A stretch of 64,000 bases of DNA from an uncultured Bacteroidota bacterium (GTDB taxonomy: Bacteria; Bacteroidota; Ignavibacteria; Kryptoniales; JAKASW01). Both the position numbers and the translations under genes were made by a program. The notes beneath the pieces are model-generated. The model saw only the letters and a list, made by a program, of their open reading frames with translations, was not told where the DNA came from and made no database searches. The DNA is taken from the NCBI GenBank assembly GCA_963704305.1, contig OY969888.1:3627247-3691246 (forward strand), read 5' to 3'. Positions 15,823 to 33,432 of the stretch are shown here, piece after piece (within the stretch, counting starts at the first letter, position 1; each line of letters begins with the position of its first letter).

Positions 15823-15851
15823 TTGAGCTTTTGGCGCCGTTTCGGTAAATT
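15823..15851 (+). promoter_or_regulatory. Putative sigma70 promoter of tRNA-His
   Basis: TTGAGC-17 nt-TAAATT, 22 nt before the tRNA. Confidence 0.5.
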
Positions 15852-15873
15852 AATGGACAAGGTCGTTGAATAT

Positions 15874-15948
15874 GCTGGCGTAGCTCAGCTTGGTTAGAGC
15901 ACTTGACTGTGGATCAAGGGGTCGACGGTTCGAGTCCGTCCGCCAGTA
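15874..15948 (+). tRNA. tRNA-His(GTG); CCA not encoded; no genomic G-1
   Basis: Full cloverleaf: acceptor GCTGGCG/CGCCAGT, D stem GCTC/GAGC, anticodon stem CTTGA/TCAAG with loop CT-GTG-GA, T stem GACGG/CCGTC with loop TTCGAGT, discriminator A. Confidence 0.96.
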
Positions 15949-15979
15949 CGAAAACTTGAACATTCGGGAGGCTGCGCAA

Positions 15980-16702: not shown

Positions 16703-16782
16703 AGCCTTATCACATTTGACGTATTAGTTGGGGTGGAACAATTACTCGCGATTAGCTGGCGCCGGAGTAGATCGATAACGAT

Positions 16783-17229
16783 TTACTCCATCCACTTAAC
16801 TATCATCCTGTTTTGATGGTTACAGATATCCTTCCCTTCCGGAGTGAACATATACTCGAGTCGGTCTCTATAAAACTCAGAAATCTTGCCGCGCACCATC
16901 TTCATGGTGCTGTTTAGAAACTTGTTTTGTTCAGTGAACCCTTCACCTAATACGGCGATCGCAGCCGGCAACCAGCTCTCGGGAAATAGTCCCGCAAATT
17001 TGCCGCATTGTCTGTATTCCACAATTTCCGATTTTATGAGCTTGAGCGCCGCCGCCTGTCCTTCGTCTGAATGTGGCGACAAGTCGGCCTCCTTAAGATA
17101 TGCAAGCAGGGCGTCTCGGTTGGGAACTACCAGTGCAACTGCATACGGGGACTGGTTATTATACAGCATGATTTGATCGATGTATCGCGAGTTGTCGGTG
17201 ATTGCCTCTTCAATATACCAGCGCCGCAT
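16783..17229 (-). pseudogene. 3' fragment of a long-chain acyl-CoA synthetase (AMP-binding family)
   Basis: IEEAI...IDQIML...VALVVPN...FTEQNKFLNSTMKMVRGKI resembles the FadD-type C-terminus; the whole N-terminal adenylation domain is absent. Confidence 0.75.
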
Positions 17230-17528
17230 TTGAGAACAGACTTCCTGATATCACTATAGGTTGTGCCAGCATACTCATCTTCATTGTTTTCCCACATCAT
17301 AATGTTGGAAGAGAATCAAGAGACGCTTCTCTCAAACAAAAATGGTATAGTTCTGTTCTGTTTTGATTCGGACATGAAAGTTCCCTGACCATGGTTGATG
17401 TAGTTCTAATCAACCCTCTTGTGAAATACAAGATTAGTGCGGGATCGCAACATTTGATCAAGAGTGTTTGATCGTCTCGTCCCCTCAGCCTGGATTTCGC
17501 TCAGGTCCGCCAGACTTGCCACTCACAT

Positions 17529-17897
17529 TCATATGATGAGGTGATTTATTGCCGCCTCGCGATCCCTGAATAACGTCACATCCATTCCAGTATTTCTCGC
17601 CACCGTCTCAACGAAATCATGCGAATGGTCTTCCGGACTGACCAAGAGGGCCACTCGTGCATTTTTGTCGATCCCCTCTGGTGTCTTCATATCCTCATAT
17701 GCGAATTCGTATATCCTCGAGATAGTGTCAACATTTCTCGATTCAGTCACATCAACTAGGTACCGGTCTATGCCGAGCTCTCTGCCCAAAGCGTGTGCCT
17801 CAAGGTTTTGCTTTAGAGCCAGGTCGGAATTCATCTCTCCAATCACTTTCAACACTATGTAATTTCTGTCTGCGGAAGGTCCTATCGTGTATGGCAT
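17529..17897 (-). CDS. Small alpha/beta hypothetical protein (STAS/SpoIIAA-like)
   Basis: YLVDVT...RVALLV...FVETVARNTG...LFRDREAAINHL pattern typical of SpoIIAA-like proteins. Confidence 0.55.
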   Translation of the reverse strand: MPYTIGPSADRNYIVLKVIGEMNSDLALKQNLEAHALGRELGIDRYLVDVTESRNVDTISRIYEFAYEDMKTPEGIDKNARVALLVSPEDHSHDFVETVARNTGMDVTLFRDREAAINHLII

Positions 17898-18121
17898 GGA
17901 TGCGTCCCCGCCTTCTGTTCTCTTTTCATGTTCTCATCACCGGCGCATAACTGTCATCGTTCTCATTTTTACGAATCTTAGTCCATCCGCGAACACACGG
18001 TTATCCGAATTCTTGAGTAAGTCTCTTGGCGTGGCGGAAAAAAGCAACAATAGGTTCATTCACGGACAAACCTCCGACCCTTCATACAGCACATCCATCT
18101 TACCGTTGCTGTCTACACGAG

Positions 18122-18150
18122 ATTTTAACCTGTTGCACCCTGAAAGTCAA
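18122..18150 (-). promoter_or_regulatory. Putative sigma70 promoter
   Basis: Minus strand TTGACT-17 nt-TAAAAT; shares GCTTGACT...ACAGGTTA with the promoter at 30368-30396. Confidence 0.5.
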
Positions 18151-18374
18151 GCGTTTGTAGCGGCGTGATGAATCAGCTTATCGACATAGCTGCCAACACG
18201 TGACATCAATCCACGGCAGAGTACAATTCCAATCATGGATCCTCCGATCCCATTTCTCTTCATAGAATCGCTCACAGGTCACTCGACGACAACTATCGTC
18301 GAAAGGAGCAGAATGTTGTGAAATCCTCCCTCCCGGAAGGTTGGGTCGCGGAGACCGACCGGCTGTGCAGAGAT

Positions 18375-21300
18375 CTAACGAGCTCTGTAAGAAGCGAGGA
18401 CGCGGCCGTCCTTTTCTACGAGCAACAATGCCGCCCTGCTCGGTGGAAGGTCGACCATGAAAGCCTTGTCGCTCGCCTTGTCCAGAATTTTCACTTTGGC
18501 GGTATCCGCGCTCTCAGAAGTCAGAACGTAAAGCGTGGCGTCATGCAACTTCGTCGGAGAGATGAGGATGCCAGGATCCTTGCAGGAGGTCTCATAGACC
18601 GAGCTCACTCCCGCACGCTTCATGGCATATTCATAGATACGCCCTACTTCATCTATTTGATCGGCAAGCTCAAGTGGCAGTGAGAAGTAGAGAATGTTAC
18701 CTTTGCCAAGCGGGATGTCGGCAAAGGTCTTCCCATTTCCGAGCACACCGCGTTCGCAGTAGCTTGTCTTGTTCCCGGAATAACTTAAGTGTGCTATGCC
18801 GCCAGGCCAGCTGATTTCCGCTTCCCTCGTAATCAGCGACTCGTATGTATATTTCACATTCCAGTTGCGCGTCCGCTCTGGGATGGAATGCCAATGTTCG
18901 TCGGCATCAATTCTTCCCGAAATAAGCAGCGTTGCACCTTCGCTTACCCTTTTCATAAGTAAGTCCCAGGCATCCTGAGTGATCACCCATGGAGCCGGGA
19001 CGATGACAAGTTTAGCATCCGGCATTTGAGAGAGTTGATCCTCGCCGATCGCGAATGCCACTCCCCTTGCATAGTGGTACAGTGCACGGACCGCCTTCTG
19101 TTGCGCTTCGATTGCTCCTTCACTGTAGATTGAAAGTTGCAGTGACTGCGGCAACACCAGTGCGATGTCGGGCAGACTCGCTCCCACGGCGTATGGTTGC
19201 GCATCATGAGCGAATGCAGCTATCCCTTTCAGTGCCTGCATCCATTCCTTTTGAGAGCCATCGCGGCGCATGATCCCGTAATCATCACTTCGTGTCCAAT
19301 CCCAGTGAAGAACTCCTGCGTTCCCGTTGGCAAATGCGAGAGCGAGCTTCCGTTCCTCAAGCCCCATCCCTCTCTGGTCGGCCCAACGCCAGGAACCGTC
19401 CATTGCCCAAACCGGCTGTGCCCCGGTCTCTTCGATGAGGTTCGGCTTCTGAATGTTCTTGGCCGCAACCGAACCCCAGAGCAGTGCATCGTCGCGCCAC
19501 CAGGTATGATTCACGGTATAATTCACCTGTGAGTTTGCCCAGAACTGATTCAACACGCGGTCCACGATGCCGCCTTCATCCTGGCCGACGGTGACTTCTT
19601 GCTTCGAACCCGCGGCACGGATCGCCTGAATGACCGTGTCCACCCAACCGGTGAATGCATCCTGAGCAAACAGGTTGTAGTCTACAGCGCGAATAGTCTT
19701 CAGATTGCCGGAGCGGGTTGGAGCGAGATCGGAAGTGTCGGGCAAAGGCACCCTGCTGAATGTGCCCAGCTGGTCTGGAGGGACGCGCCATGACTCAGCA
19801 AGTTTGTCAATCACATGGTATCGTTTCTCGAGCCACTGCTGCCAAGCTGCAAGCTCTCTTGGATCTCCATTTGGTGAGTTTCCCTTCCAGATTCGGCCGG
19901 GATTGGAGAAGCTGGGTTCATTGATCAGATCGTAACTAAGAAATGGCACATCCCGGAAACGCGAGACGATTGAACGCACGTACTCGATCTCCGCATTGAC
20001 CATCATCGGATCAAGGTATGCGTTGGGACCTGACACTGCTCGTTCATCGTCGGGTCCCGATCCATGCCGAATGTCCAATTGTGGATTAAAGGCAAAGAAA
20101 GTGAAGATGACTTGCATGTGATGACGCGACGCCGCATCAAGGTAAGCTTCAATAGCTCTCAGCAGGCGTTCGTCCGCGGCACCGGTCACCTGATCGAGAT
20201 ACCTTGCCTGATTGTCCCAGGTTCCTGTGCGAACAATCGTGATTCCCTGCCGTTCCATCTCAGCAAAGTCGCGTTCCCAGACATGCGCATTTCCACCAAG
20301 ACTTCCACCGACAAAGAAATCGGAGGTGTATGGATCGGTTGAAAAATAATTCACACCCACCGGCAAGTACGGCATTCCATCCAGCCGGAAGTAATCGCGG
20401 CCCATATCAAGCTTTTTTCCCGACATCAACAGCGAGCTATCGCGCACATCCACTCCAGATGTGTATCTGTCGATCGTGGTATCGCCGACAGAAAGGGTCG
20501 CCCGCACCTGGTAGAATCCAGGTTTGCTTAGTGGTGCCTTGAGTCCAATTTCTTCGCGAAGTGAACTCTCACAGTCAACTGTCCTCGTCTCGAGCACGTC
20601 TGAACCCGATAACAATTCGAGCGTCAACTTTGCCGGTTCGCCTCTTCGGAGAACATCAACCGCACCCGTAACATGTTCGCCTGGGTCAATTGTGAGCTCC
20701 TGCATGTCAAGCCAGAGTCTGTCTCCGCCGTATGAAGCGTAAGTGGCTGCTTCACGCATCAGGTCCGTGCCGGCTTCAGAATTCCAGTAACTTGAGTCGG
20801 CATCGAAGCTGAGAAAGACTCCTCGCACCGGTGAGGAAGTGAGATTGACAAAATCTTCAGCAACGACGGGAGCAGCAAGGCGATCTCCGTTTGCGTCGAC
20901 AAGGAAACCGATTCCGCGGTACCTTCCTCCATATCCTGCGTTCACGAAGACGCGAGTTGGATTTAGCGATTCGTGGTGACCGGTTTGTGCCGCGTGAATC
21001 GAGTCCATCTGAGAAAAGAAGGGCGCATCTTCATCCCACTTCAAAGTCCACGGACCATGCTGCATTGCGGGATACGAGTACATTATGCCGAGATATCTGG
21101 AGTAGGTATTCTGAGGTGGCTCAACCCGCCAACCGCTGCTGTCACGGTAAACCGGAACGTAGAAAGGTCGCCCGCCCAGTATGAGGAGATTGCCGTTTCG
21201 AAGATGATGTTGTATGGCTTCCCAGGCATCAGCCGGGAATGCCGAGCCGTAAGGGAGCACAAGGAGATCGCCATCGGAGAGATTCTTCCCAAGATCAGCG

Positions 21301-21470
21301 ACCCCTGTGAAGCGCACGTCCGCTGAAGCAAAAGCTCGTTCAAGGGCGGCACGGCCAATTGCGCCGTTATCTACAGTCGGGAAACTCTTCTCGTAGAAAA
21401 CAACCGTCTTACAATAACCGGAGGAGACAGTGAACAATACAATGAACAGCAGAAAATTAATGTGCTTCAT
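18375..21470 (-). CDS. Large secreted clan GH-A glycoside hydrolase (GH42/GH5-like) with GATase-like trimerisation domains
   Basis: Signal peptide; VGVNY, YDLINEPSF (acid/base Glu), LIEETG (nucleophile Glu), GVLHWDW; GATase-like segments (LLILGGRPF, GATLLISG, LGKGNILYF). Confidence 0.75.
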   Translation of the reverse strand: MKHINFLLFIVLFTVSSGYCKTVVFYEKSFPTVDNGAIGRAALERAFASADVRFTGVADLGKNLSDGDLLVLPYGSAFPADAWEAIQHHLRNGNLLILGGRPFYVPVYRDSSGWRVEPPQNTYSRYLGIMYSYPAMQHGPWTLKWDEDAPFFSQMDSIHAAQTGHHESLNPTRVFVNAGYGGRYRGIGFLVDANGDRLAAPVVAEDFVNLTSSPVRGVFLSFDADSSYWNSEAGTDLMREAATYASYGGDRLWLDMQELTIDPGEHVTGAVDVLRRGEPAKLTLELLSGSDVLETRTVDCESSLREEIGLKAPLSKPGFYQVRATLSVGDTTIDRYTSGVDVRDSSLLMSGKKLDMGRDYFRLDGMPYLPVGVNYFSTDPYTSDFFVGGSLGGNAHVWERDFAEMERQGITIVRTGTWDNQARYLDQVTGAADERLLRAIEAYLDAASRHHMQVIFTFFAFNPQLDIRHGSGPDDERAVSGPNAYLDPMMVNAEIEYVRSIVSRFRDVPFLSYDLINEPSFSNPGRIWKGNSPNGDPRELAAWQQWLEKRYHVIDKLAESWRVPPDQLGTFSRVPLPDTSDLAPTRSGNLKTIRAVDYNLFAQDAFTGWVDTVIQAIRAAGSKQEVTVGQDEGGIVDRVLNQFWANSQVNYTVNHTWWRDDALLWGSVAAKNIQKPNLIEETGAQPVWAMDGSWRWADQRGMGLEERKLALAFANGNAGVLHWDWTRSDDYGIMRRDGSQKEWMQALKGIAAFAHDAQPYAVGASLPDIALVLPQSLQLSIYSEGAIEAQQKAVRALYHYARGVAFAIGEDQLSQMPDAKLVIVPAPWVITQDAWDLLMKRVSEGATLLISGRIDADEHWHSIPERTRNWNVKYTYESLITREAEISWPGGIAHLSYSGNKTSYCERGVLGNGKTFADIPLGKGNILYFSLPLELADQIDEVGRIYEYAMKRAGVSSVYETSCKDPGILISPTKLHDATLYVLTSESADTAKVKILDKASDKAFMVDLPPSRAALLLVEKDGRVLASYRAR

Positions 21471-21653
21471 GAAATTCTTCCGTTAGTTATCTCTTTGGTA
21501 GATGCAACTCTTCGTTTGTGATTGTTCATTACTGATGAATTGATTCCCGCAAACAATTTCGGGTTTCAACCCTTGGATAGAATTTTTCGTCGTCAAATTC
21601 GATGGGCGACGCCCGACGCCTTCGTTCCGTCTCGTCTCCCATCTAATCACGAC

Positions 21654-22076
21654 CTATTTCATCTTTCGTTTAATATCCATCAACAACTTGGTCGTTTCCA
21701 AATCAGATGCTTTCTTAATCTTCACGGTTATCCCTCTTATCTTACCGTAGTTCTTACCATTCATGAATTGGTCCTTGAATTCTTTTTTCAACTTACTGCC
21801 CTTCAATAGTTCTTCGGCCTTGTCACTGAAGTAGAAAGTGGTCCTAAACATTTTGTCATAGACAGAAACCCAGCACATTGTTTTCTTCTTCTCCGTGACT
21901 TTAAAAAGCCAACTCTTGCCATCGTTATAATATCGCCACTCAGTTGTTATTGCAGGATAGTCTTTCTTCATAAATTTGAGAAATGTGTCCCACGCTATCT
22001 TTGTTCTTCCAAGATGGTGAAGCAAGACATCATCACGGGGATACTCGTCTTTGTTATTCAGACATCGCTCTTCCAT
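21654..22076 (-). CDS. DUF3788-like protein
   Basis: EWRYYNDGKSWLFKV..KKKTMCWVSV...FRTTFYF. Confidence 0.7.
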   Translation of the reverse strand: MEERCLNNKDEYPRDDVLLHHLGRTKIAWDTFLKFMKKDYPAITTEWRYYNDGKSWLFKVTEKKKTMCWVSVYDKMFRTTFYFSDKAEELLKGSKLKKEFKDQFMNGKNYGKIRGITVKIKKASDLETTKLLMDIKRKMK

Positions 22077-22100
22077 TGACTCATTCTTCCTTTTGCAGAA

Positions 22101-22688
22101 CTAAATGTGAACTTCAAATTTGCATTCATGTGCGCCCGTTACGACCGACTGAATGAGGTCAACCTTCACAGGTCTTTCAAGAACTTTTTCCCAGAGTTTC
22201 CCGACAAATCCCTGCGAGCAATGACAATAAGTAATTGAGACCTTTTCATCGGCTGGCAAGCCTCTTAGCAAGGCGCAATAACACCGCATTGGTCTCGTAA
22301 ACGATTGCGGCGTGTAATACTGATAGAGGGTATTCCCTATTCTTTCTAACCTTGTTCCGGTAATAGGATGTTTCTGTTCAGCCATCAGAAAGTCATCCAT
22401 GCTTCTGTATTTCTTGCGTCTCGCTTTCGCTCTTTCAATCACTCCGTTGTTTATCATGGAACATTTATAGCCGCAGTTTTCCATTATCTGAAATCTTGTT
22501 TTCTCATCGACTAGCTCGTCTAGCTTTTCCATCGCGCCTTTCACCCACTCGGCCGTTTTGCCTTTGCTCGCGCCTCGAGAAGTTATCTGCTCGCTTCCCT
22601 CCATCACCTTCTCCCGCACCCTCTTCCCGGCGAATCGTTCTACATTTCCTCCGATTTCTTTTATCATGCTGCCAATCATTTTCGCCAT
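22101..22688 (-). CDS. Cys-rich DUF6144/V4R-like protein
   Basis: CGYKC, CYC, YCHCSQGF...PVKVDLIQSV.TG..EC.F; AAGGAGG RBS. Confidence 0.65.
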   Translation of the reverse strand: MAKMIGSMIKEIGGNVERFAGKRVREKVMEGSEQITSRGASKGKTAEWVKGAMEKLDELVDEKTRFQIMENCGYKCSMINNGVIERAKARRKKYRSMDDFLMAEQKHPITGTRLERIGNTLYQYYTPQSFTRPMRCYCALLRGLPADEKVSITYCHCSQGFVGKLWEKVLERPVKVDLIQSVVTGAHECKFEVHI

Positions 22689-22732
22689 GCAACGAGCCTC
22701 CTTCCTTTCCTTCTAATCCTTGGGTCAGATGT

Positions 22733-22843
22733 TCAAACTCCCTTGAAAGTGAATAGCCTTCGGTAGTTGTCGCGCTGTTCAGCCACCCTATATGACCATA
22801 TGCCCATCGAGTAAAATGTAGCCCGCGGCTCGTGCATTGTCAA
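22733..22843 (-). promoter_or_regulatory. Promoter + leaderless micro-ORF module, copy 1
   Basis: TTGACA-17 nt-TACATT-ttactcg-ATG(22807); ORF MGIWSYRVAEQRDNYRRLFTFKGV*. Confidence 0.6.
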
Positions 22844-23017
22844 GCTTCTCCGCTCTGAAGAATACCCGTTTGTTACCCAATTGTCGTGGTATTAACGATC
22901 ACGCAGAATGAATCTCATGAGCAGTGCTTTGCAAGATCTGGACATAGACTCAAACGGGAAGAGTCGTTCTTGAACATGTCACCTGCTCATGGCGCAGCGC
23001 AGGGGATGTCTGCTATT

Positions 23018-23203
23018 CTATTGTTCTCCCTTTTTTGCCCTAAGGGCCGAGATGATCGGATACAATGAAATTCCAAAGAGTGCACCGCAAACGAACAAGC
23101 CGAGGACTTGAACCGTCCTCACATTCTCTGCATACATTACGATAGCCAGCGCAATAGAAAAAACCATCAATGCAACTCTGCTCCAGAATGGTTTTGAATC
23201 CAT
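23018..23203 (-). CDS. Small two-TM membrane protein
   Basis: Strong GAGGAGGAG RBS; two hydrophobic helices. Confidence 0.65.
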   Translation of the reverse strand: MDSKPFWSRVALMVFSIALAIVMYAENVRTVQVLGLFVCGALFGISLYPIISALRAKKGEQ

Positions 23204-23236
23204 CCTATTCTCCTCCTCGATATTTGGTTGGTTAAT

Positions 23237-23316
23237 GTATAACGTCTAGAACATTTTTCTGCTTCGAATTGCTCGCATACATTGCACGTAACGCGAAGAA
23301 AGCTCAGATGTTAGCC
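23237..23316 (-). other. attC-like imperfect palindrome
   Basis: Minus strand GGCTAAC (overlapping the end of the SnoaL gene)...GTTATAC, 80 bp, with nested complementary arms. Confidence 0.35.
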
Positions 23317-23729
23317 ACCTTGACTGCACCGATCTCGAGCAACGGACCGAGCAGATTGGCGGCACCACCATGCTCGGCGATTCGACCTTCAACGACTTTG
23401 TCAATGTTGACGCCCGTGTACGCTACGAGCTTGCCCGTCGGTTTCATGCCGAGCCAAATGCCATTGTGAGTGCCACGCGCCGTGATCGAAGTCGCGACAT
23501 AGTCACCCTCGGCTATCTGATGTTCAACAGTTAGTTTGAGATCCGGATAGGTGTTGCGAACTCCGAGGACGTGCTCCCTGGCTCCCGCAATGCCTATTGC
23601 GTATCGCTTACCTTCGAAGACTTCAGTGTAATCCGCCGATATGTATTTCTCTATTTCACTAACATTACCAGTGTTGATGACCTCTTCGATGTATTTCCGG
23701 ACAAGCAACTTGTTATCGGTCGTAGACGT
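23304..23729 (-). CDS. SnoaL-like ester cyclase (NTF2 fold); apparent ACG start codon
   Basis: YPDLKLTVEHQIAEGDYV...GTH.G.WLG..PTGK; GGAGG + 6 nt + ACG-TCT-ACG-ACC-GAT-AAC-AAG gives the family-typical MSTTDNKLLVR N-terminus. Confidence 0.8.
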   Translation of the reverse strand, partial: TSTTDNKLLVRKYIEEVINTGNVSEIEKYISADYTEVFEGKRYAIGIAGAREHVLGVRNTYPDLKLTVEHQIAEGDYVATSITARGTHNGIWLGMKPTGKLVAYTGVNIDKVVEGRIAEHGGAANLLGPLLEIGAVKVANI

Positions 23730-23793
23730 GGCTCGCCTCCCTGTTGAGTATCAATTTGCGGAGTTTCGTTTTGCGTCCCGAACAATTCAATAT

Positions 23794-25548
23794 CTAATTA
23801 ATGTATTTGCTTCTCCACCAATTGCTCCACTCTTTCGGTGTCCTTAATACAAACCCGCTCATTCTCTCCAACTCAGAGCGTGCCCTATCCTGTTCTTGTG
23901 TATTCCCCACCCACATAAGTCCGACTAAGAGATACTCTTTCAATTCCCCGTCATATCGCCTCGCGACCGTTTTCAACCTTTCACCGAGAGAAATGTTCCG
24001 AATCTCATCGCGATCCTCTTCCGATATTGAGGGAAGATTTTCGATGACGGCTTTCAACATACTAAGATGAGTTGTCGAATCTCTAAGTGGCATTGCCATC
24101 CAATCTTCTAACGAGTCTATGTTCTGAACGGCGTCGAAGCGCTCTATGAATTTATCAGACAACTCGGTGAATCTCTTTTTCGCAGTCGCAGTTGAATCGT
24201 GCCCATCAGTTAATAGAGAATCCAATAATGGCCGAATGTGCGAATCGGTATTCAGATAGGACCGCTTCAGCTGATAATACAGCCTGGAGGTATAAATGCT
24301 GTAATATATCTGCTCCTGTTCGTTGCTTTTTTCAATGTATTTCTTCCTCAGCTCAGAAAGAGGCAGTAGCGTGTTTTGGCTTCTGATGAATTCCAATGGG
24401 AATGGGAGCGTAGTCTCCGGTTTACACAACACGATATAATCAGGAGAGTCCGACTTTTCCTCATATCTTATTATCTTGATTTCTTCTCTCAGTGGAGTAA
24501 TCCCGGTAACGAAGGTTGATACACTGTCGCGAGAAAAGTATTGATCCAGATAATGAACAAGATAATATCCTTCCTTCTGCTCTTTGGGAAGATCCTCCTC
24601 TGCTCGTACGTCTTCTTTTGAATTGGAGGAATTCTCCTCCACTGAGACATCCGCATCTATGAACACGTCTCCTATGTCATGCTTCCCGCGACCAAGATGA
24701 GCATCGCCGTAAAAGATCAAAGCCTTATACTGGGGATTGGCATCAAGAAGATGTCTAATACTTTCTGAAGTGAGTCCATCTCTTTGCTGAGCGTCATATT
24801 TTACTCTTCCTTTTCTAAATTCTCTGAGCCGCTGCCTGGACAATGCCGTATCTCTTGTCAACTTATAATCACGCCAATATTGTGGAATGATCTCCGGACC
24901 TACCAGGCGAAAATCATAAGGTCGTGAGGAGTCTTGCGCGTTCAACTTTTCAACTCTCTCTTCAACATGCCTGAGGTCATTTAGATACTCAAGCCAGTCG
25001 ACCGAATACAATCCTGCGAAGTAGACTCTTTGATCATACCGTGTTAACATGTTTACCGGATCTCCGGTTTGAAAATACTCATCCATCGCGGCCACTCCCC
25101 CGCTATCCTGCTCCACGAAGAGAAAGAGCTTCTTAGGTAAGCTAAGTTGCGAGTGCAAAGTTGCCCAATCAATTTCTTTGTCCTTGATCTTTGCTGATTG
25201 ATCTCTCCGTTCATTTTCCAATTCACTAACCCAGCTGTCAAGCACACCTGTTACCAGTCTCATGTAATACCCCGTACCGTGCCTTCTGTCTCCCATCATA
25301 ACGATCCTCTTGTCGGTGAAGTTATTTAGGACAAGAGCGTTCAGCGAATCGAATCGAAAGATATTCGTAATGCGCAGTTGAGGCTCGGGATTTCGTGCAC
25401 ATCCAGCGATAAGGATCAACAAGGCAGAGAAGCAAAACGCTGCTTCTAACATCTTCCTCGTTAATGAGGCACTATCAGGTTTACTGCGGACCTTTCTTCT
25501 TTGCATTATCCCAGCCCTTTGACTGAAAAACGTTTGCCTGGAAGCCAT
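23794..25548 (-). CDS. Lipoprotein with ChaN/erythromycin-esterase-like motifs (true start probably downstream of 25548)
   Basis: Lipobox LIAGC; VMMGDRRHG, LFVEQ, QRDGLT, ALIFYGDAHL in the order seen in the EreA/ChaN superfamily. Confidence 0.5.
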   Translation of the reverse strand: MASRQTFFSQRAGIMQRRKVRSKPDSASLTRKMLEAAFCFSALLILIAGCARNPEPQLRITNIFRFDSLNALVLNNFTDKRIVMMGDRRHGTGYYMRLVTGVLDSWVSELENERRDQSAKIKDKEIDWATLHSQLSLPKKLFLFVEQDSGGVAAMDEYFQTGDPVNMLTRYDQRVYFAGLYSVDWLEYLNDLRHVEERVEKLNAQDSSRPYDFRLVGPEIIPQYWRDYKLTRDTALSRQRLREFRKGRVKYDAQQRDGLTSESIRHLLDANPQYKALIFYGDAHLGRGKHDIGDVFIDADVSVEENSSNSKEDVRAEEDLPKEQKEGYYLVHYLDQYFSRDSVSTFVTGITPLREEIKIIRYEEKSDSPDYIVLCKPETTLPFPLEFIRSQNTLLPLSELRKKYIEKSNEQEQIYYSIYTSRLYYQLKRSYLNTDSHIRPLLDSLLTDGHDSTATAKKRFTELSDKFIERFDAVQNIDSLEDWMAMPLRDSTTHLSMLKAVIENLPSISEEDRDEIRNISLGERLKTVARRYDGELKEYLLVGLMWVGNTQEQDRARSELERMSGFVLRTPKEWSNWWRSKYIN

Positions 25549-25568
25549 CGTGGAAATCAGCTCGTGTC

Positions 25569-25670
25569 TTAGGCTATATCAACACGGTTGTTAATCTCCC
25601 CCTCCTCAATACCCCCGCACTGTCGCACGGTCATCGTTGAAAATGTAAGAGGCGGTTCATGAACTATCAA
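25569..25670 (-). promoter_or_regulatory. Promoter + leaderless micro-ORF module, copy 2
   Basis: TTGATA-17 nt-TACATT-ttcaacg-ATG(25634); ORF MTVRQCGGIEEGEINNRVDIA*. Confidence 0.6.
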
Positions 25671-25729
25671 GTATGGCTGCTACGTTGGTCGATGGCCGCT
25701 TCGAAGGGAGCCGCGTTCGCCACCGACGG

Positions 25730-26543
25730 TCAGCGGGCCGTGCTTTCAAGGTGAGAATCCGTCCGTGTTGCCCCCTTTTTCAACTTCCATATCATGAAGG
25801 GACTCGATTGCTCTTGGAATGGATCACAATTGTAGTCGCCGTACAGAGTGATTACCTCGAATCCGACTTCGCGAACAAGGGACTCAAACTCATCTCTGTG
25901 GAACAGATAAAAGCAGATGTCGAGAGTACGATGATCAATCACTTTGCCGCCGGTAGCGTAGCGATCATATGTCTGTTCACCTTGAGATAACTGAGAACGT
26001 CGGATCAAATGAAAGTCTCGAATTGACGACGAGCTTCCCGCCATCTGACATCGGAAACTCGCCGACCAAATGCATCGCACCATCCATTGAGGCAATTCGA
26101 ACGGTCGGGTTCTGGAGCGTGCAAATGAAAATACCATTATCCGTCAGGTGATCCCGGATTCTTTCAAGGGCTGGTTTTCGATTGTGCGCGTCGACGAGTT
26201 CTGAAAAAGAATGGAATGGAATAAAGATAAGCTCGAAACGTTCTTGAAGTTTGAGATCCGCAATATCCTGGCACATGATCGGACAAGATAGATTGTTCTT
26301 TTCCAACTTCTTCCGGAAACGGGCGAGCATCTCAGGGGCATAGTCGACACAGGCAAGATTTACGCCGGCTTTCAACAAAGGTATGGATACTCGTCCGGTG
26401 CCGCAGGTGAGTTCGAGAACTTTTCCATGAATTGCCTTTGCTTCAGCGAGCCAGAACGGGATGTCGAAGTCCGTCCGGACATAGTCGTCATATATGTCCG
26501 CCACGGCGTCGAAGTGGATTGGTTGAGGAGTGGGAGAGATCAT
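25730..26543 (-). pseudogene. Class I SAM methyltransferase split by a +1 frameshift
   Basis: ORF 25977-26543 (VLELTCGTGRV, VDYAPEML) continues in ORF 25730-26137 (GFEV..LYGDY); removing one base at 25996-25997 joins FDPT to SQLSQGEQ. Confidence 0.8.
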
Positions 26544-26773
26544 GGCCTTTTTGTCTCCGTTGAGAAATCCTCCCTAGTATTTGTCGTACTGAAGCATCAA
26601 TATCTATATTGACAAAGTGTTTCTTGGTGCTAAGTCTTTTTCAATCGATAACTACTACAAATATATTTTTGCCATTGTATTAAGCTGAATTTGTTTTTTG
26701 AAGCCGAAGCATATCATTGAGCTAAATTCTTAATCCAAACGAATACCATGCTCAGTTATATAGTCCAATGATG

Positions 26774-28873
26774 CTAATGAATAACCTGTATGTAGCCATC
26801 TAAATTCTTTTGACTCCCACATCCTGCAATTGTAAGAGTAAAATAATAAACACCATCAACTACTTGTTGCCCGGAAACTGCATTGCGTCTGCCGAGAAAA
26901 GTTCTATCCCACCAATTGTAATTTACCGTTTCGGTGGCTACGCCGTTCCAGTTAATGCTTGGTATTGTAGGATCATTGTTATTTACTTTAGCTCTGAACG
27001 GACAGCAAGTTGAAGAATTGGCCGACAGATGGTAGACTCTGTCACCCCATCTGTTAAAAATCTGCAAGTTAAAATATTGAGCATTATATGCGCAAAAAGG
27101 ATAATTGTGATCGTTTATAAACCATGTATCGTTTATCCCATCGCCGTTTGGTGTAAACACATTTGGTATGGGATCGTATGTAATTCCCGGAAAATGAGAG
27201 CAACAGTCCTCACAATCGGTAATGCAAGTATTCGGGTCAACCAATCCTGTGAATCCAGGGCCCGCAGTAAATCCCGGGTTGAGTATTATTTGATGGCCTG
27301 CCTTAAAAGTTACATTTGCCGAACCTGTGTTTACAGGCCCATCCGTTTGATTGGGATCGACGCTCTGCCCTGCAAAAATATCGTTTCCTGCTTTTGTAAA
27401 TGAAGGTAACGGATTATTGTTTGGTGATCTGTTTTCGTAATAAACATTTGGCGGGCAACTTGCACAACCGACCCTGATAGTGAAATTAGCACTATCTGAT
27501 AACGATCCACAAGCGTTATTATCTTTGAATCTTACGGTAAACGTATGATCACCAATCGCACTTGCAGGCGGCGTCCAACAAAATTGACCAACCTGTTGGC
27601 CATTGCCTTGAGGTAAGAATGTAGAGCCTGCAGGCAAATTAGTGCAAGCAAGAAACGTAACGTTTTCGTTTGGTGTGTCAAAAGTAGGAATATAAAAGCA
27701 AGTGCTTACGCCGGCCTGTGCGTAGAACAAATAATCTCCCGTGTTATTAATTCCATTTACATAAGGAGCGACATTTTGAGGTGTATGTATAATCGCATTG
27801 ATGCTTCTTGTAATCTGGCAGCCATCAGCATTTGTAACCGTTACCGAATAAGGATTCCCTGAAGCTGATGCGGTAGTCGTAATCGTATTTAATCCTACTC
27901 CATTTTGTCCGGTACTCCAATTGTAGTTGTAAGTTGCGCTACCTTGAATTGACAATGTAAATGATTGACCTGCGCACACAGGCTGAGGGCTTGCTGTAAT
28001 TTGACCAATACTAAAATCTGAATTCAAACTGCCAGCCTTCAGTATGATTCCGGAATCATATTTATCGTCGTTAATATTTGAAATCACAATTTTGCAATGA
28101 TAAGTCGCATTGGGATTGCATGAAATTAATAATGCTTTTGCCTGAATTACTGTAGTAAATCCATTATAAGGAATATTATGATTGTTAAGACTGGGAGCTG
28201 TTGATGAACAACTTCCGCTTTGTTGGCTTATACAATTGCCATTATTATTTAGCCAGCAATTATTTCTATAATAAGCACTATTTGTGCAGGCATTTATAGT
28301 ATTTACGGAAACGGGAGTAGGAGTATTAGTATTAGGTACGGTTGCAATGTTGATAGCTCCATTTGAAAAAGGACCGCTAATAATTCCTGGTCCGCTAATA
28401 AAAAAACCAAAGCCATCATGGAATGCTGATTGCGCATAGGCATTGTATTCATCACTCAAGAAAACATAATCAAATGAAGGATGAGCACCTGTAGTAGTAA
28501 AGTCAAACTCGAAAATTGCCGGACTAAATTGAGTACCGCCTCCCAATAATTGTTGCAAGTCAATATCCGGCGTGGCGTTGCCGGACACAGCTAAATTATC
28601 TCCCACGTTAGTAGTATTCCCGGTATGTGCAAAGGCGCTGGAGCCGGTCGTAATAATTATACCACTAGTAAAGCCGATAGTTCCATTTACATCAGTAATT
28701 AATGCCAGCTGTGTTGGATTACCGTTGAATGTTGCACCGCTTATCGTAATTCCATTCGAGCCTTTCAACGTATTAGCCGCCGTGGCAGCATCAGTATAAG
28801 TTACGCTGAACTCCTGTGCGACAATTCGCGAAGTTGTGATCAAAACGATACTTAACAGAATCAATTTTCTCAT
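26774..28873 (-). CDS. T9SS type-B CTD (gliding motility-associated C-terminal domain) surface protein with choice-of-anchor L-like N-terminus
   Basis: Signal peptide; [10 protein letters not shown]...[14 protein letters not shown]...NIA.VP...YNGFT...YDSG; C-terminal [16 protein letters not shown]...IFNRWG...WNG...GVYYF. Confidence 0.85.
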
Positions 28874-28897
28874 AAAAGTTTTCTTTTAGTAGATCGA

Positions 28898-30130
28898 TTA
28901 GTTATTTCCTTTTTTCAATGCAGTTAATTCATTTTGTATTGCTTCAATACGTTTGTTTTGCTGGATGATATAAAGGGTCAACTCTTCTATTTTTTGCATC
29001 TGCAGTTTTACTAGTTGACCGAGATCCCCGCCATTGCTCTCAACTTCATTCGTGCTTGGCATTCCCGGTAAGTGTCCGTTTTGTTCTATGTATTGTTCAA
29101 CTTCTTCTAATGACTTTAGTTCATAACTTCTTTCAAAAACGAAATCGCTCCAACCTGTTTCAACCACAATTCTTTTTGTTCTGATATCTCCATTTACAGA
29201 TAGTCTGTATGACGAATTATTTGAATGCGGACCGATTTCCACATTGCCGCCTTCCGGTTGAAGGTCCAATGCGTAAGGTGAGTTTCCTATGGTATTTGCA
29301 TTGCCCTGTGAATACACCTGTATAACTCCTGCATTGGTTGCTGGCTGGTTATATATGCAGGTATATACGTCACCCCGATTTATTGAAAAGCCACTGGTTT
29401 TATCTGTGCCACCAAGTATGGATAATTTTGAAGGAGGAGAAACAAGACCAATTCCTGTATTCCCATTTTTTAAAACAGTTAATGCATTTGATGGGGATTG
29501 ATAATTTACCCCATTGCCAATTACAAATAATGGATCTGTTGCTACCCATGTTGTTGGACTGTAATTTCCAGGATTCGTATTGGACCTTCCTATCACGAAT
29601 GAACAATAGGCTTGAGCCGTTGTTCCTGTTCCAAAAGCTGAAGCATTATCTCCCGGCGCAAAATTACCCTGCCCGGCTCCAAATGAAGCAACACCACTGG
29701 CAATATTTATTGCTCCAACCGCAAATGAATAGTTGCCACGAGCTCCGGTATTATACCCAAATGCAGTAGACCCGATTCCAATATATTGATCATCCCAGGC
29801 ATTTGTACCCAGCATACTTGATGTAATTGCACCCGCCCTAAAAGCACTTTTGGAAGGAATCCACATCATTCTTGTTCCTAAGCCACTCACTGGAGTAGTT
29901 CCTGTATTGCCATTTAATAGAAAGCTGCCGGTGGATAGAATCCTCATTCTCTCTGTACCACCAGTTCTTACTATCCAGTCGGAAGAATTGATCGTGCCTA
30001 TCCACCCATTTGGTGACGATGGAGGTCCGGTCAATGTATTGCCTGCTAAGTTCCATTGCGCCATGGACACATTCGCAGCAAATAAGAAACTTGTTGCTGT
30101 TACAAGCAAGATTTTAATTGATGTTCTCAT
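28898..30130 (-). CDS. Secreted fibre-like protein (YadA-head-like repeats, Bacteroidetes tail-fibre/S74-chaperone-like C-terminus)
   Basis: Signal peptide; WNLAGN..IGT..ERMRI; A.G..SFA.G repeats; WSDFVF..Y.L..L.EVE.YI..NGHLP..PS...KIEELTLY plus coiled coil. Confidence 0.75.
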   Translation of the reverse strand: MRTSIKILLVTATSFLFAANVSMAQWNLAGNTLTGPPSSPNGWIGTINSSDWIVRTGGTERMRILSTGSFLLNGNTGTTPVSGLGTRMMWIPSKSAFRAGAITSSMLGTNAWDDQYIGIGSTAFGYNTGARGNYSFAVGAINIASGVASFGAGQGNFAPGDNASAFGTGTTAQAYCSFVIGRSNTNPGNYSPTTWVATDPLFVIGNGVNYQSPSNALTVLKNGNTGIGLVSPPSKLSILGGTDKTSGFSINRGDVYTCIYNQPATNAGVIQVYSQGNANTIGNSPYALDLQPEGGNVEIGPHSNNSSYRLSVNGDIRTKRIVVETGWSDFVFERSYELKSLEEVEQYIEQNGHLPGMPSTNEVESNGGDLGQLVKLQMQKIEELTLYIIQQNKRIEAIQNELTALKKGNN

Positions 30131-30312
30131 AATGATCCTGGTTTTAGGTTCGTTGTTCGAAAAACAGTTAGATTCGGATTAGCTGACCTATCAGATAACA
30201 TTTTTTCTGCGTAATAGTGCCCGACAAATAGTCCTTTAACGATTATAATTTCATCCGGGCTTGAAAGAAAAGAGACATGCTTACACGCAACCCTCAAGAG
30301 CACGGATGAACT

Positions 30313-30396
30313 TTGGTTTCCTTCACTTTCCATAACACCCCTGTATCCTGGCACGCTCATCGCTGAAAATGTAACCTGTCATTCCTGCACAGTCAA
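30313..30396 (-). promoter_or_regulatory. Promoter + leaderless ORF module, copy 3
   Basis: TTGACT-17 nt-TACATT-ttcagcg-ATG(30360); ORF MSVPGYRGVMESEGN... runs 77 aa to 30127. Confidence 0.6.
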
Positions 30397-30633
30397 GCTC
30401 CCGATGAGTTCTGCGGTCCGTGTCCTGAGCCCGGTCATTCGAGCCCGGTGCACCATCGTTCTTCCTCAGAACTCAGTCGATCTTGCTGTCCGAACTTCCT
30501 TCAGCCTCAGAAGCAAAAAAATGTTACCTTGTCATTTCTTGTAGATTCTGCCCTAGCTCACTCCGACTTAATACCTGCTCCCTCCAGATGCAACCTGAGC
30601 AGCTGTTTGCGGATGCTGGGTAGTAGCAACCTT

Positions 30634-30671
30634 AAAAACAAAAGCCCGTCCATTGTTGCTGGGACGGGCTT
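30634..30671 (-). terminator. Intrinsic terminator downstream of clpB
   Basis: 10-bp stem AAGCCCGTCC/GGACGGGCTT with a 10-nt loop, running into TTTTGTTTTT on the minus strand. Confidence 0.8.
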
Positions 30672-30696
30672 AAGGAGAGATAGAGTAAGAGCAAAA

Positions 30697-30724
30697 CCTA
30701 AACTCTAAACACGAAATCCTAAAC
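30697..30724. repeat. Degenerate heptamer tandem repeat (x4)
   Basis: CCTAAAC TCTAAAC ACGAAAT CCTAAAC. Confidence 0.55.
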
Positions 30725-30789
30725 GTTATCTTGACAGAATCTTTCTATGCTTCCATAAGCGCTTTTACGCATCCACCTAAAGTGATGTT

Positions 30790-33432
30790 TCATTTCACCA
30801 CTTCGGCAGTCTGAGGTACCTTCTTGAATTCAATCTTCCCCGATTCAGGAATGTCGACCTCAACCGTCTCGCCGGGCTCGAACTCGCCTGCGAGAACCTT
30901 TTCAGCAAGTGGATTCGAAATATATTTCTGGATGGTTCTCTTCAACGGTCGAGCTCCGTATGTCGGATCGTAACCAGCATCCGCGAGAAACAACTTTGCC
31001 CTTTCACTCAGATCCAATTTCATGCTGTTGTTCTCGCTTACTCTGGCTATGATGCTCCTGAGCTGCATGTCGACGATGGCGCGGATTTCGTTTCTCGTCA
31101 GCGGCTTGAACACAATTATCTCGTCGATCCGATTTAGAAATTCCGGCCTGATCGTTTGTTTCAAGAGATTGAATAAGTCGTTTCGCAGACTCTCCATCAT
31201 CTCGGCGCGATCCCGTTCCCGTGTCGTCTCAATTTTCTGTTGAACCAGCTGCGAGCCGAGATTGGACGTCATGATTATTATCGTGTTCTTGAAATTGACA
31301 GTCCTCCCTTTGCTGTCTGTCAATCTTCCTTCATCCAGGACCTGCAATAAGACGTTGAAAACCTCCGGATGAGCCTTTTCAATCTCGTCGAGAAGAACGA
31401 CCGAATACGGCTTTCTTCTGACTGCCTCAGTCAATTGACCGCCTTCTTCATAACCGACATATCCCGGAGGTGCACCGATCAATCGAGAGACTGAGAACTT
31501 CTCCATGTATTCAGACATGTCGATGCGTACCATGGCGTCTTCGTCATCGAATAGGGCTTCAGCCAGGGCACGCGCCAGCTCAGTCTTACCGACGCCGGTC
31601 GAGCCGATAAATATGAACGACCCGATCGGACGTTTCTCATCCTGCAGTCCGGCCCTTGCGCGTCTAACTGCATTCCCGACGGCTGCCACCGCCTCCTCCT
31701 GATCCACCAACCGTTGATGTATCTTCTCTTCAATATGAAGAAGCTTGCTCCTCTCGCTTTCAAGCATCCGTGAGACGGGGATTCCTGTCCAGCGCGATAC
31801 GATCTCCGCTATGTCTTCGGAATCGACCTCTTCTTTCAACATCTTGGTATTTTTCTGAACTTCCCTGAGGCGTTGTGTTGATTCCTTTATCCTTTTCTCA
31901 AGCTCGGTAATCTTCCCATACCTGATTTCGGCGACCTTGCCGAGGTTCCCTTCACGCTCGGCCTTGTCCGATTCCGTCTTCAGGCGATCGATATCCTCTT
32001 TTGATTTCCGAATCGACAGAATCAGATCTTTTTCAATTTGCCAGTGCGCCTTGAGCTGTCCGCTTTGCTCTCTCAAATCGGCGAGCTCCTGTTCGATAAC
32101 GGAGAGTCGCTTCTTGGACTCCTCGTCCTTTTCTCTTCGCACCGCCTCTTTCTCGATCTCGAGTTGCTTGATTTTCCGTTCGACCTCGTCGAGCTCTTCC
32201 GGCAGTGAGTCCATTTCGATTCTCAGCTTCGAGGCAGCCTCGTCGATCAAGTCGATAGCCTTGTCCGGCAGGAACCTGTCTGTGATATATCGATTGCTCA
32301 ATTGTGCTGCTGCTACGATCGCGCCATCGGTAATCCTCACGCCATGATGAACTTCATAACGTTCTTTCAAGCCTCTAAGAATCGATACCGTATCTTCGAC
32401 CGAAGGTTCATCGATCATGATTGGCTGGAATCTTCTTTCAAGCGCCGGATCCTTCTCAATGTACTTGCGATATTCGTTGATAGTCGTGGCTCCGATCGCT
32501 CTCAGTTCACCTCGCGCAAGTGCGGGCTTCAACATGTTCGAGGCATCGACCGAACCCTGAGCGGCTCCAGCTCCCACAAGCGTATGAAGCTCATCCATGA
32601 AAAGTATGATCTCGCCTTCGGACTCGACTACCTCTTTGATAATCGACTTCAGTCTGTCTTCGAATTGTCCCCGGAACGAGGTGCCTGCGACAAGTGTGCC
32701 CATGTCGAGCTGGATAATTCGCTTCGACTTGAGACCGTCAGGTACATCGCCGCTCGCAATTCTCCTGGCAATTCCTTCCACAACCGCCGTCTTTCCTACG
32801 CCCGGATCTCCGATCAGCACAGGATTGTTTTTTGTTCTCCTCGCCAGAACTTGCAGCACTCTCCGTATCTCGTCATCGCGACCTATAACAGGATCGAGCT
32901 TTCCCTTCCTTGCAAGGTCGGTTAAGTCTCTCCCGAACTTCTGCAACGATTGATACTTCTCTTCCGGATTCTGATCCACTACTCTGTTTGTGCCGCGAAT
33001 TTCGCGGAGAGCTTTCAAAACCAAATCCCGGTTGATTCCCTGCGCTGTGAGGATCTTATACGAGTCAGTGTTCCGATCGGTCAGGAAACCGAGGAGCAGA
33101 TGCTCGGTGCTGACGAATTCGTCGCGCATCTGATTGGCTTCCTTCTCTGCAGAATCCAAAAGCTTTGACAGAGGCTGCGAGAGATATTGACTCGCCGTTC
33201 CTCCAGTGGAGATTGTCGGAAACTTCTTTACGGATTCGTTTGTCTTGGAACGAATATAATCGAGATTGGCTCCCGCTTTTTTCAGGATTGAAGCAGGAAT
33301 GCCCTCTTCATCCTGCAGAAGCGCGAGAAGCAGATGCTCGGGCTCGATTGCCTGGTTCTGATTTTCTGTAGCGATAGACTGCGCTCGCTCCAGAGCTTCT
33401 TGCGATTTGATTGTAAGTTTATTTGGGTTCAT
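30790..33432 (-). CDS. clpB: ATP-dependent disaggregase ClpB
   Basis: Two AAA+ modules ([16 protein letters not shown]), long coiled-coil M domain, [14 protein letters not shown]. Confidence 0.97.

Follow-up and report, generated by a model that had tools for sequence, protein, structure and literature searches.

Probable portable promoter-plus-leader modules ahead of unrelated genes in a genus of uncultured Bacteroidota

A 64,000-nucleotide (nt) stretch of the genome of an uncultured Bacteroidota bacterium (contig OY969888.1, positions 3,627,247 to 3,691,246, referred to below as the window) carries three copies of a short module in which a promoter-like sequence is joined to the beginning of the presumed transcript, and each copy heads a different block of genes. 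We found that these copies belong to a real, selectively maintained, multi-copy module that precedes unrelated accessory genes across the genus. The copies are homologous and numerous, they have sharp edges and unrelated genes behind them (their cargo), and between species they are conserved above the level of near-neutral sites. We consider it probable that they represent a genus-wide family of portable promoter-plus-leader modules, ~70-95 base pairs (bp) in length, which have been placed before unrelated, mostly accessory genes.

In the mechanism that we infer from sequence features, for promoter activity, the transcription start at the ATG, translation behind it and the way of spreading alike, the module would carry a near-consensus sigma-70-type promoter (GCTTGAC(A/T), a 17-nt spacer and TA(C/G/T)ATTTT), followed at 7-9 nt from the -10 box by an ATG and then by a short conserved transcribed stretch ending in (A)GGGG(A). 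Copies would be put before unrelated genes by duplication or recombination, and in co-oriented arrays each copy would start its own transcription unit, such that the module would supply host-type transcription. Given the use of leaderless mRNA that is predicted for this organism, the module probably also provides a 5'-terminal AUG, loading ribosomes onto a short upstream open reading frame (uORF) of arbitrary sequence, which in some copies may be coupled to the cargo gene through an ATGA overlap.

Module copies in the window and in the host genome

The genome that holds the window (G000, hereafter the host genome) is a single contig (C1) of 4,529,109 bp with 48.8% G+C. Within the window, the pattern TTGA-N19-TACATTTT-N3-CGATG occurs exactly three times, always on the minus strand and with starts at 22843, 25670 and 30396, and the number of matches is still three when two mismatches are tolerated; a shuffled window is expected to contain 0.04 matches, and 0/100 shuffles gave three. 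The original prediction, made from the letters of the window, had described this trio, and its details hold: in 3/3 copies the spacer measures 17 nt and TACATT is followed by the ATG after 7 nt, the open reading frames (ORFs) that begin at the ATG of copies 1, 2 and 3 span 24, 21 and 77 codons, copies 2 and 3 align without gaps and differ by GAG/GAA at two codons, and the 77-codon ORF shares an ATGA with the start of the gene that follows, which encodes a protein of 410 amino acids (aa; 30130..28898).

We scored the window with R1, a sequence-only covariance model built from 11 good copies of the host genome (alignment A3). Copy 3 (30317..30404, minus strand; -35 TTGACT at 30396-30391, -10 TACATT at 30373-30368, ATG at 30360-30358), whose conserved transcribed part reaches ~30319, obtained 70 bits (E 5e-21). 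Copy 2 (25591..25678, minus strand; -35 TTGATA at 25670-25665, -10 TACATT at 25647-25642, ATG at 25634-25632, with its 21-codon ORF running to 25569) obtained 62 bits (E 1.7e-18), and copy 1 (22764..22851, minus strand; -35 TTGACA at 22843-22838, -10 TACATT at 22820-22815, ATG at 22807-22805, with its 24-codon ORF running to 22733), the most diverged of the three, obtained 53 bits (E 8e-16). The runner-up site in the window reached 6.6 bits.

Two further elements of the original prediction fared less well. A site at 18122..18150 (minus strand), proposed as a related promoter, does look like a promoter (TTGACT-17-TAAAAT), but it is not detected as a family member, with an R1 score of only 4.3 bits (E 1.7). 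The stem-loops said to precede each copy do form, but no better than in shuffled sequence (z -0.57, +0.13 and -1.35 for the three window copies), and five more upstream stretches, one of them from the other array of the host genome, gave z-values of -0.64, -0.97, -0.26, +0.12 and -1.75 against shuffles. Some of these upstream hairpins look like terminators of the preceding genes. Separately, the motif GCGCGGCATTTTTCG is common to the two terminator-like hairpins that precede copies one and two of a five-copy array (L001:1650-1792 and L001:3376-3462), and the duplication that gave rise to this pair may have taken in a terminator.

Across the whole 4.5-Mb host genome the full motif occurs 8 times, and a profile scan with nhmmer, which had been suggested as a check on the prediction, finds 12 copies, 11 of them at E <= 1.4e-8 and one decayed copy at E 7e-4. 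Family copies score 53-83 bits against the profile, compared with <7 bits for the other promoters in the window. Eight of the 12 lie in two co-oriented arrays, namely the three window copies and five copies within 14 kb (121,793-135,544), all on the plus strand; the remaining four are solitary.

To map the edges of the unit, we compared all copies against each other by blastn together with 1 kb and 1.5 kb of flanking sequence. Pairwise similarity sets in 2-10 nt before TTGA (30 nt in one pair) and ends 58-91 nt after it, and the unit is therefore compact, covering ~70-95 bp or ~-45 to +25/+50 of the presumed transcription start, with ~25-50 conserved transcribed bases. Only copies 129148, 135544 and 2869674 are part of longer segmental duplicates, which include a small ORF and a beta-lactamase-family gene. 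Representative pairs are 93.9% identical over 82 nt (123463/129148), 90.8% over 65 nt (123463/126546) and 82.3% over 62 nt (2869674/window copy 3), while window copies 1 and 2 take part in no blastn pair of >=80% and are linked to the family through the profile only.

Since promoters of the form TTGACA-17-TAnnnT are general in the host genome, that of dnaK among them, and weak matches to the promoter part turn up in many genomes, the copies might be nothing special, reflecting a generic promoter consensus or chance resemblance. We give this reading practically no credence, and the data refute it. The dnaK promoter and ~15 native leaderless genes of the host genome contain TTGAC-N17-TAnnnT yet lack the other bases of the family; the similarity among copies extends ~50 nt into the transcribed part; none of the 100 shuffles reached three matches; and the gap between 53-83 bits and <7 bits separates the family from the other promoters of the window.

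Cargo, synteny and distribution across the genus

The cargo blocks behind the three window copies differ in their Pfam content, as had been proposed. The block of copy 3 (26774..30130, minus strand) encodes two proteins with signal-like N-terminal sequences, namely the exported 410-aa protein, which matches the YadA head weakly, and one of 699 aa that carries a CHU_C type IX secretion tail; that of copy 2 (23304..25548, minus strand) encodes a 584-aa protein with a lipoprotein-like N-terminus and no Pfam match, and a SnoaL-like protein; and that of copy 1 (18375..22688, minus strand) encodes DUF6144 and DUF3788 proteins and a 1031-aa glycoside-hydrolase-like protein. Elsewhere in the host genome the cargo comprises a BNR/sortilin-like protein, orphans, a PMT_2 glycosyltransferase, beta-lactamase-family proteins, a hybrid histidine kinase and a glucuronyl esterase with a Por secretion tail, and no downstream similarity was detected by blastn except among the segmental duplicates (129148, 135544 and 2869674). 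In the window there are also two minus-strand ORFs, at 25730-26137 and 25977-26543, that overlap by 160 nt; the 135-aa ORF of this pair is probably spurious, because its hexamer score is -0.04 compared with 0.27 for the overlapping methyltransferase ORF.

Most of the cargo that we followed into the other species of the genus has no counterpart there. For three of five host cargo proteins tested (of 584, 410 and 877 aa), no full-length orthologue was found in 25 congeners, the best match to the 410-aa protein being 46% identical over part of its length, and the cargo histidine kinase has only partial or split matches. The 702-aa esterase has orthologues of 67-69% identity in G006, G010 and G001 and an 81% paralogue in the host genome; the upstream regions of these orthologues and of the paralogue contain no module, the paralogue being similar over the proximal 170 nt only.

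The genomic setting of the window copies points in the same direction. Upstream, the window block is bounded by the intrinsic terminator of clpB (30636..30680, minus strand), which is kept in relatives, where hisB follows; in G006, G010 and G019 the hisB block lies directly behind this same terminator. In the host genome the hisB block (C1:3406618-3420211) lies 237 kb from clpB, whose end is at ~30.7 kb of the window, and none of the ORFs in the 20 kb after clpB matches the 16 kb after clpB of five relatives. The window block thus begins at a synteny break, and with clpB synteny broken and no matches beyond it, we conclude that the copies sit in non-syntenic accessory DNA. A further module copy (3398554) lies 8 kb upstream of the displaced hisB block.

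A portable module is the best reading of these results because the copies share bases beyond the promoter consensus, the cargo mostly lacks orthologues, synteny breaks at the window block, and the upstream regions of the esterase orthologues are free of the unit. On the same grounds the portable expression module put forward in the original prediction is supported in part, a conserved micro-protein being the exception (see below).

We examined the distribution of the family in 26 genomes of the genus, the host genome and 25 other species. R1, run on 61 relatives, gave near-full-length matches in G018, where three co-oriented copies occupy one 12-kb contig, and in G014. A second model, R2, built from six R1-found copies in these two genomes (alignment A5), gave matches at E <= 0.001 in 9/26 genomes of the genus: 8 in G014, five of them co-oriented within 12.7 kb, 5 in G018, 3 each in G006, G010 and G013, 2 in G001, 1 each in G022 and G017, and 6 in the host genome, including a new copy at C1:3,391,419. 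The widespread type reads approximately CGCAAAGCTTGACTATATGGTGGAGACAAATTAGATTTTTGGCGAGATGAATGGCGTGGGA. Since 19 copies from 8 genomes have nothing in common in the 90 nt before them, the left edge is sharp outside the host genome too. The array of G014 adjoins argB/argC.

Cargo in the other species is of a similarly mixed kind. Of the first long ORFs behind 25 copies found with R2, 17 have no Pfam match, and the remaining 8 include HEAT-repeat, BNR, DUF, SnoaL-type, reverse transcriptase, TIR and DNA methylase proteins. At three loci, L245 (G010:C1:3065288-3068360), L255 (G001:C1) and L261 (G013:C1), the genes behind the modules encode a reverse transcriptase of the DRT8 type with HEAT repeats, a protein with a TIR domain and a type II DNA methylase. 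PADLOC matched 4/36 cargo proteins (DRT8, TIR, a type II methyltransferase and one weak methyltransferase match in the window), and defence genes are therefore only part of the cargo.

Searches by exact pattern reached less far. Scanning 41 relatives with the exact pattern gave 7 matches outside the host genome, none with a -35 box or leader, and blastn of the module in the 25 congeners returned nothing below E 0.01; both scans missed diverged relatives that the profile models later caught. A looser pattern hit at least 116 loci, of which 80 (L063-L142) were scored with the family hidden Markov model: 10 reached E <= 1e-3 (best 21.8 bits), these cover only about profile positions 3-53, which is the typed promoter pattern itself, and six loci that we inspected have no leader in common. 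Collections of phages and plasmids contained no module match. In two contigs from metagenome-assembled genomes of Zixibacteria (L091 and L109), an orthologous gene starts 7 nt after TTGACA-17-TACATT; this start is apparently leaderless and unrelated to the module family.

We aligned 36 copies, omitting the decayed host copy and two matches on contig G014:C4. Over the first 58 columns, widespread-type copies from different species have an identity of 0.776 (73 pairs, range 0.625-0.929) while standing before different genes; the corresponding figures for clpB DNA from six of these genomes are 0.756 overall and 0.451 at third codon positions. A non-coding unit kept so well is either under purifying selection or recently exchanged. 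For 21/36 copies the nearest relative lies within the same genome, and G000, G014 and G018 each have a subfamily of their own. At one orthologous locus, marked by the same 408-aa gene (G014:C39:102582 and G010:C1:3276141), a copy is present in both species, each resembling the type of its own genome. This pattern fits lineage-specific propagation or homogenisation of copies atop an older shared type.

Several results weigh against portability. With R2, 17/26 genomes of the genus have no copy at E <= 0.001. The strict host motif was absent from 185,579 species genomes (its own genome left out), and the 9 loci that it hit in metagenome contigs are all chance-like. The copy kept at the orthologous 408-aa-gene locus implies that the distribution is partly vertical. 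We found no transposase, no shared terminal inverted repeats and no target duplication, and the term mobile therefore draws on the distribution of copies and on nothing else: in an inverted-repeat search of 4 copies, two had none, one had internal palindromes only, and one (G018:C9:6827) had flanking 15-nt arms that the others do not share. Finally, selection on the binding site of a regulator could explain the conservation without any spread, as discussed next.

Leader, start codon and short reading frame

In such a regulon, the spacer and the initial transcribed stretch would form the binding site of one regulator that co-controls accessory genes, either a repressor covering the -35, -10 and +1 positions or an RNA-binding protein such as CsrA acting on a GGA-rich 5' leader. 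Conservation between species would fit such a site, with an identity of 0.78 for the spacer (TATATGGTGGAGACAAATTAGA for the widespread type) together with the initial ~25 transcribed bases, compared with 0.45 at third codon positions. Such a site would leave unexplained the ~90 bp of contiguous homology, the sharp edges, the genome-specific subfamilies and the co-oriented arrays, and no regulator gene accompanies the copies. We regard a regulon in place of a spreading element as unlikely, though the two readings are compatible.

One candidate for such a regulator is CsrA. The conserved leader of the host copies reads GUACAGGGGAAGGAAGG, with GGA motifs in nearly all copies, and its GGA-rich sequence presumably resembles the consensus selected for CsrA by systematic evolution of ligands by exponential enrichment. 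The host genome has a motA-motB-fliW-csrA cluster at C1:2,332-2,334 kb (L200), in which csrA stands beside fliW, and a flagellin gene near C1:927.9 kb whose leader has a sigma-28-like promoter, one GGA in a hairpin loop and another in the Shine-Dalgarno sequence; judged by its sequence, this flagellin leader has the classic layout of a FliW-CsrA target, with textbook GGA sites. CsrA of the FliW type is known mainly for flagellin control, which counts against a wider CsrA regulon, and GGA is expected by chance in purine-rich tracts. A CsrA link of the module leader is possible.

Structure in the leader gave little to build on. With Rfam 15, only a tRNA reaches the gathering score in the window, and nothing was reported on the copies at E <= 1 within 22000-31000. 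No leader fold found support: single folds are inconsistent, and RNAalifold returns a 4-bp hairpin of -2.3 kcal/mol whose covariation comes from one copy. We also considered, and rejected, an ops-like element recognised by a NusG paralogue, since the sole paralogue heads a polysaccharide locus far from any copy. This second NusG-family gene (C1:894.3-894.9 kb; L191:12273-12890, minus strand) resembles UpxY-type antiterminators and heads a locus with an epimerase, a UDP-glucose dehydrogenase and GT11.

The position of the ATG suggests a role in translation. In 10/12 host copies TACATT is followed after 7 nt by the ATG, with no Shine-Dalgarno sequence, and in most copies of other species the ATG lies 9 nt after the -10 box. 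Scanning the host genome for TTGA[CT], 17-19 nt, TAnnnT, 5-8 nt and a start codon opening an ORF of >=100 codons yielded 24 ORFs. Among them are four native leaderless genes, of the LexA (C1:2139265, minus strand), CDP-alcohol phosphatidyltransferase (4016239, minus), TetR (3218538, plus) and AsmA (3486414, minus) families, with a TTGAC -35 box 17-19 nt from the -10 box and Pfam domains of a kind usually found right at the N-terminus, which here begin at residues 1-13. Because these genes share its geometry, the ATG of the module is probably translated, and the AUG probably serves as a start.

A further possibility is that the ATG opens a real leaderless micro-protein gene, whose N-terminal peptide, M-x-x-V-[VP]-[WR]-[YH]-x-[RG]-G, would have a function of its own, either as a small protein or in regulation as a nascent peptide. 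Several features could be read this way: the ATG is retained in 10/12 host copies and in most others; leaderless translation appears to be native to this genome; in the G000, G018 and G014 subfamilies (A)GGGG follows the ATG at a distance divisible by 3 (9, 18, 21 or 24 nt); these three subfamilies also have the block CGTG..G.GG.AC in one and the same frame; and some differences are synonymous (GTC/GTG, TAT/TAC, ACA/ACT). There is also a reported mycobacterial precedent for leaderless short ORFs that serve as first cistrons and attenuators (10.1101/834739).

The substitution pattern speaks against a conserved peptide. In the uORFs of the host genome there is no excess at third positions, with 9, 14 and 13 non-majority letters at codon positions 1, 2 and 3, and the ratio of synonymous to non-synonymous pairs, 47:146 in frame, compares with 37:148 in a shifted frame. 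Lengths vary from 15 to 77 codons in the host genome and from 2 to 118 elsewhere, and the tails are unrelated. Three widespread-type copies have their frame shifted by a 1-nt indel (ATGAATGG versus ATGAAATGG) and still conserve the bases, and the host copy 3398554 retains GTGGTGGC in a different frame. Several copies have GTG, ATA, AGG or nothing at the place of the ATG, and one host copy with a perfect promoter (1046758) has no ATG.

The products themselves give a similar picture. The 77-codon ORF of copy 3 (30127..30360, minus strand), whose stop overlaps the start of the next gene, is an orphan that matched only itself among 5.8 billion proteins, and its hexamer score of -0.01 falls between those of coding (mean 0.48) and off-frame (mean -0.80) sequence. 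The ATGA overlap with the cargo gene occurs in 2/10 uORFs of the host genome (window copy 3 and copy 121793), the other uORFs stopping ~20-290 nt before the cargo gene. Nor was an intact parent gene starting M[ST]VxxYxG found, the existence of which the original prediction had raised, the only candidates being weak ones, leaderless tyrosine-recombinase genes of two species. A micro-protein thus strikes us as very improbable, and the sequences lend no support to the idea that the peptide as such matters, as no conserved product was found.

Spread and known counterparts

These recombinase genes lead to another reading of the family, in which the modules are recombination sites or scars of a cassette system, each being the docking site of a leaderless gene for a Xer-like recombinase or a copy of its 5' end. 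Cargo would have been inserted behind the module as at the attI/Pc platform of an integron, and the arrays that remain would lack a recombinase. A tyrosine recombinase of the Xer-like type (Phage_int_SAM_4 and Phage_integrase) is present in 19/26 genomes of the genus, for example at C1:3340670-3341593 in the host genome, at G018:C21:52721-53665 and at G014:C4 ~169644-170852. In some species this gene is leaderless and has an N-terminal extension.

Two of these genes start behind module-like promoters. At the G018:C21 locus, the gene for a 315-aa recombinase has an in-frame ATG 8 nt after such a promoter, the match running through ATGAT, with an R1 score of 16.5 bits (E 1e-4 in 25 kb, 3.9e-4 in 96 kb); the G014:C4 homologue has a like start at 10.9 bits (E 0.006-0.02), and about four further recombinase loci reach 7-8 bits. 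The homologue in G010 begins ATGATTATGGAAAGTGG, which has an 11-mer in common with the leader of the host copies. The arrays, too, look like cassette arrays, being composed of co-oriented small orphans, SnoaL-like and secreted proteins, to which relatives add DRT8, TIR and type II methylase genes.

The scores, however, are weak: ~6/27 recombinase loci match, and only in the promoter part, and the 11-mer has an estimated chance expectation of ~0.03-0.2 for the sequences inspected. The Xer-like gene of the host has lost its leaderless start, with two stops in the N-terminal stretch and a restart at an ATG led by a Shine-Dalgarno sequence. No recombinase lies in or beside the arrays, that of G014 included, no tRNA-end duplicate bounds the window block, and G006 has 3 modules yet no such recombinase at E <= 1e-40. 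The host genome also lacks an integron integrase, its best TIGR02249 match scoring 123 bits against a cut-off of 265, which led us to reject an integron there. A true integron integrase (TIGR02249, 434 bits) occurs at G010:C1:3493885-3494820, with no module match within 1.5 kb.

We therefore treat the recombinase link, drawn from sequence resemblance, as a weak lead, and consider the cassette-system reading improbable. Just as long a shot is the idea that the module forms the junction of an undescribed gene-capture system, as a recombination site that bears a promoter and descends from the 5' end of a leaderless gene for a Xer-like recombinase. If it were, each captured block would arrive with a native promoter and a ribosome-loading AUG, much as in an integron, except that the boundary repeated with each cassette would be a promoter at the 5' end and not a 3' attC.

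Two other vehicles were rejected. The single IS110-family transposase inside the five-copy array (C1:133117-134418; L001:13117-14418) is single-copy and splits no module; ~190 nt at the upstream end of this element are 78% like C1:137925-138120. A tRNA-targeting island was likewise set aside, as there is no tRNA-end repeat in 15850-31000, no integrase beside the tRNA of the window and no tRNA near the other arrays. Contigs obtained from three DNA runs were short and of low depth and contained no joints.

The portable module can be compared with several known systems. An integron platform (Pc/Pint-attI), like its recombinase-less relics, is a promoter unit ahead of co-oriented accessory and defence blocks. 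It has one promoter per whole array, whereas here every block carries a module copy at its 5' end, and it comes with IntI, whereas the host genome has no IntI above the cut-off.

The closest counterparts are the putative mobile promoters of Matus-Garcia, Nijveen and van Passel (2012), as described in a commentary and defined as stretches of >=50 nt that lie before non-paralogous genes in a single genome and are >=80% identical (PMC3575422). The authors found >4000 such families, 6% of them shared between taxa and most without a known function or mode of spread, and none matched an Rfam family or a known mobile element (PMC3575422). Pairs of host copies reach the same identity and length, and the adjacent genes are non-paralogous save for the segmental duplicates. 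Unlike those families, this one includes the -10 box, the transcript start and the start codon, forms co-oriented arrays, combines genome-specific subfamilies with one widespread type, and comes from an uncultured lineage outside the 2011 genome set. The original screen, as described in the commentary, examined positions -150..-50 relative to the start codon and for the most part left out the -10 box (PMC3575422); with ~45 to 510 nt between the ATG of the module and the first long ORF, only some copies would fall within that range.

Since putative mobile promoters have already been published, the module is a new family and not a new kind, so that the claim of an undescribed system falls, its kind being in print (PMC3575422), while the family itself is new. 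A search of open-access literature on Kryptonia or leaderless mobile promoters (2013 on) found no such module family, although word matching proves no absence. Correia elements, ERIC and REPIN are likewise short repeated intergenic units beside unrelated genes that may carry outward promoters, but they have terminal inverted repeats or hairpins, with a TA duplication for Correia elements (PMC3575422), whereas neither inverted repeats (4 copies searched) nor flanks (19 copies compared) proved to be common to the module copies.

The leaderless start has counterparts of its own. In mycobacteria, a 5'-terminal AUG after the promoter is reported likewise to open a short unannotated first cistron, but those ORFs were defined by transcription-start and ribosome data and some sense metabolites through polycysteine stretches (10.1101/834739, PMC4633059); the module is known from sequence, has no conserved peptide, and is repeated as a whole promoter-plus-start unit before unrelated genes. 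A synthetic leaderless bicistronic design in Corynebacterium also sets a leaderless promoter and a short first cistron before any gene, for reliable expression (PMC10367133). Two host copies are coupled through ATGA in a comparable manner; the design is engineered, and coupling in the module is limited to those 2/10 copies.

These results bear on the old question of how newly acquired genes are expressed in a new host, a task that one compact unit seems to perform repeatedly in this genus. If the module is an active promoter with a ribosome-loading AUG, it would be a natural counterpart of engineered context-independent cassettes and a ready expression part for the lineage. If it also marks points of gene exchange, the mechanism of promoter reuse, a question that has stood unanswered since 2012, would become directly testable.

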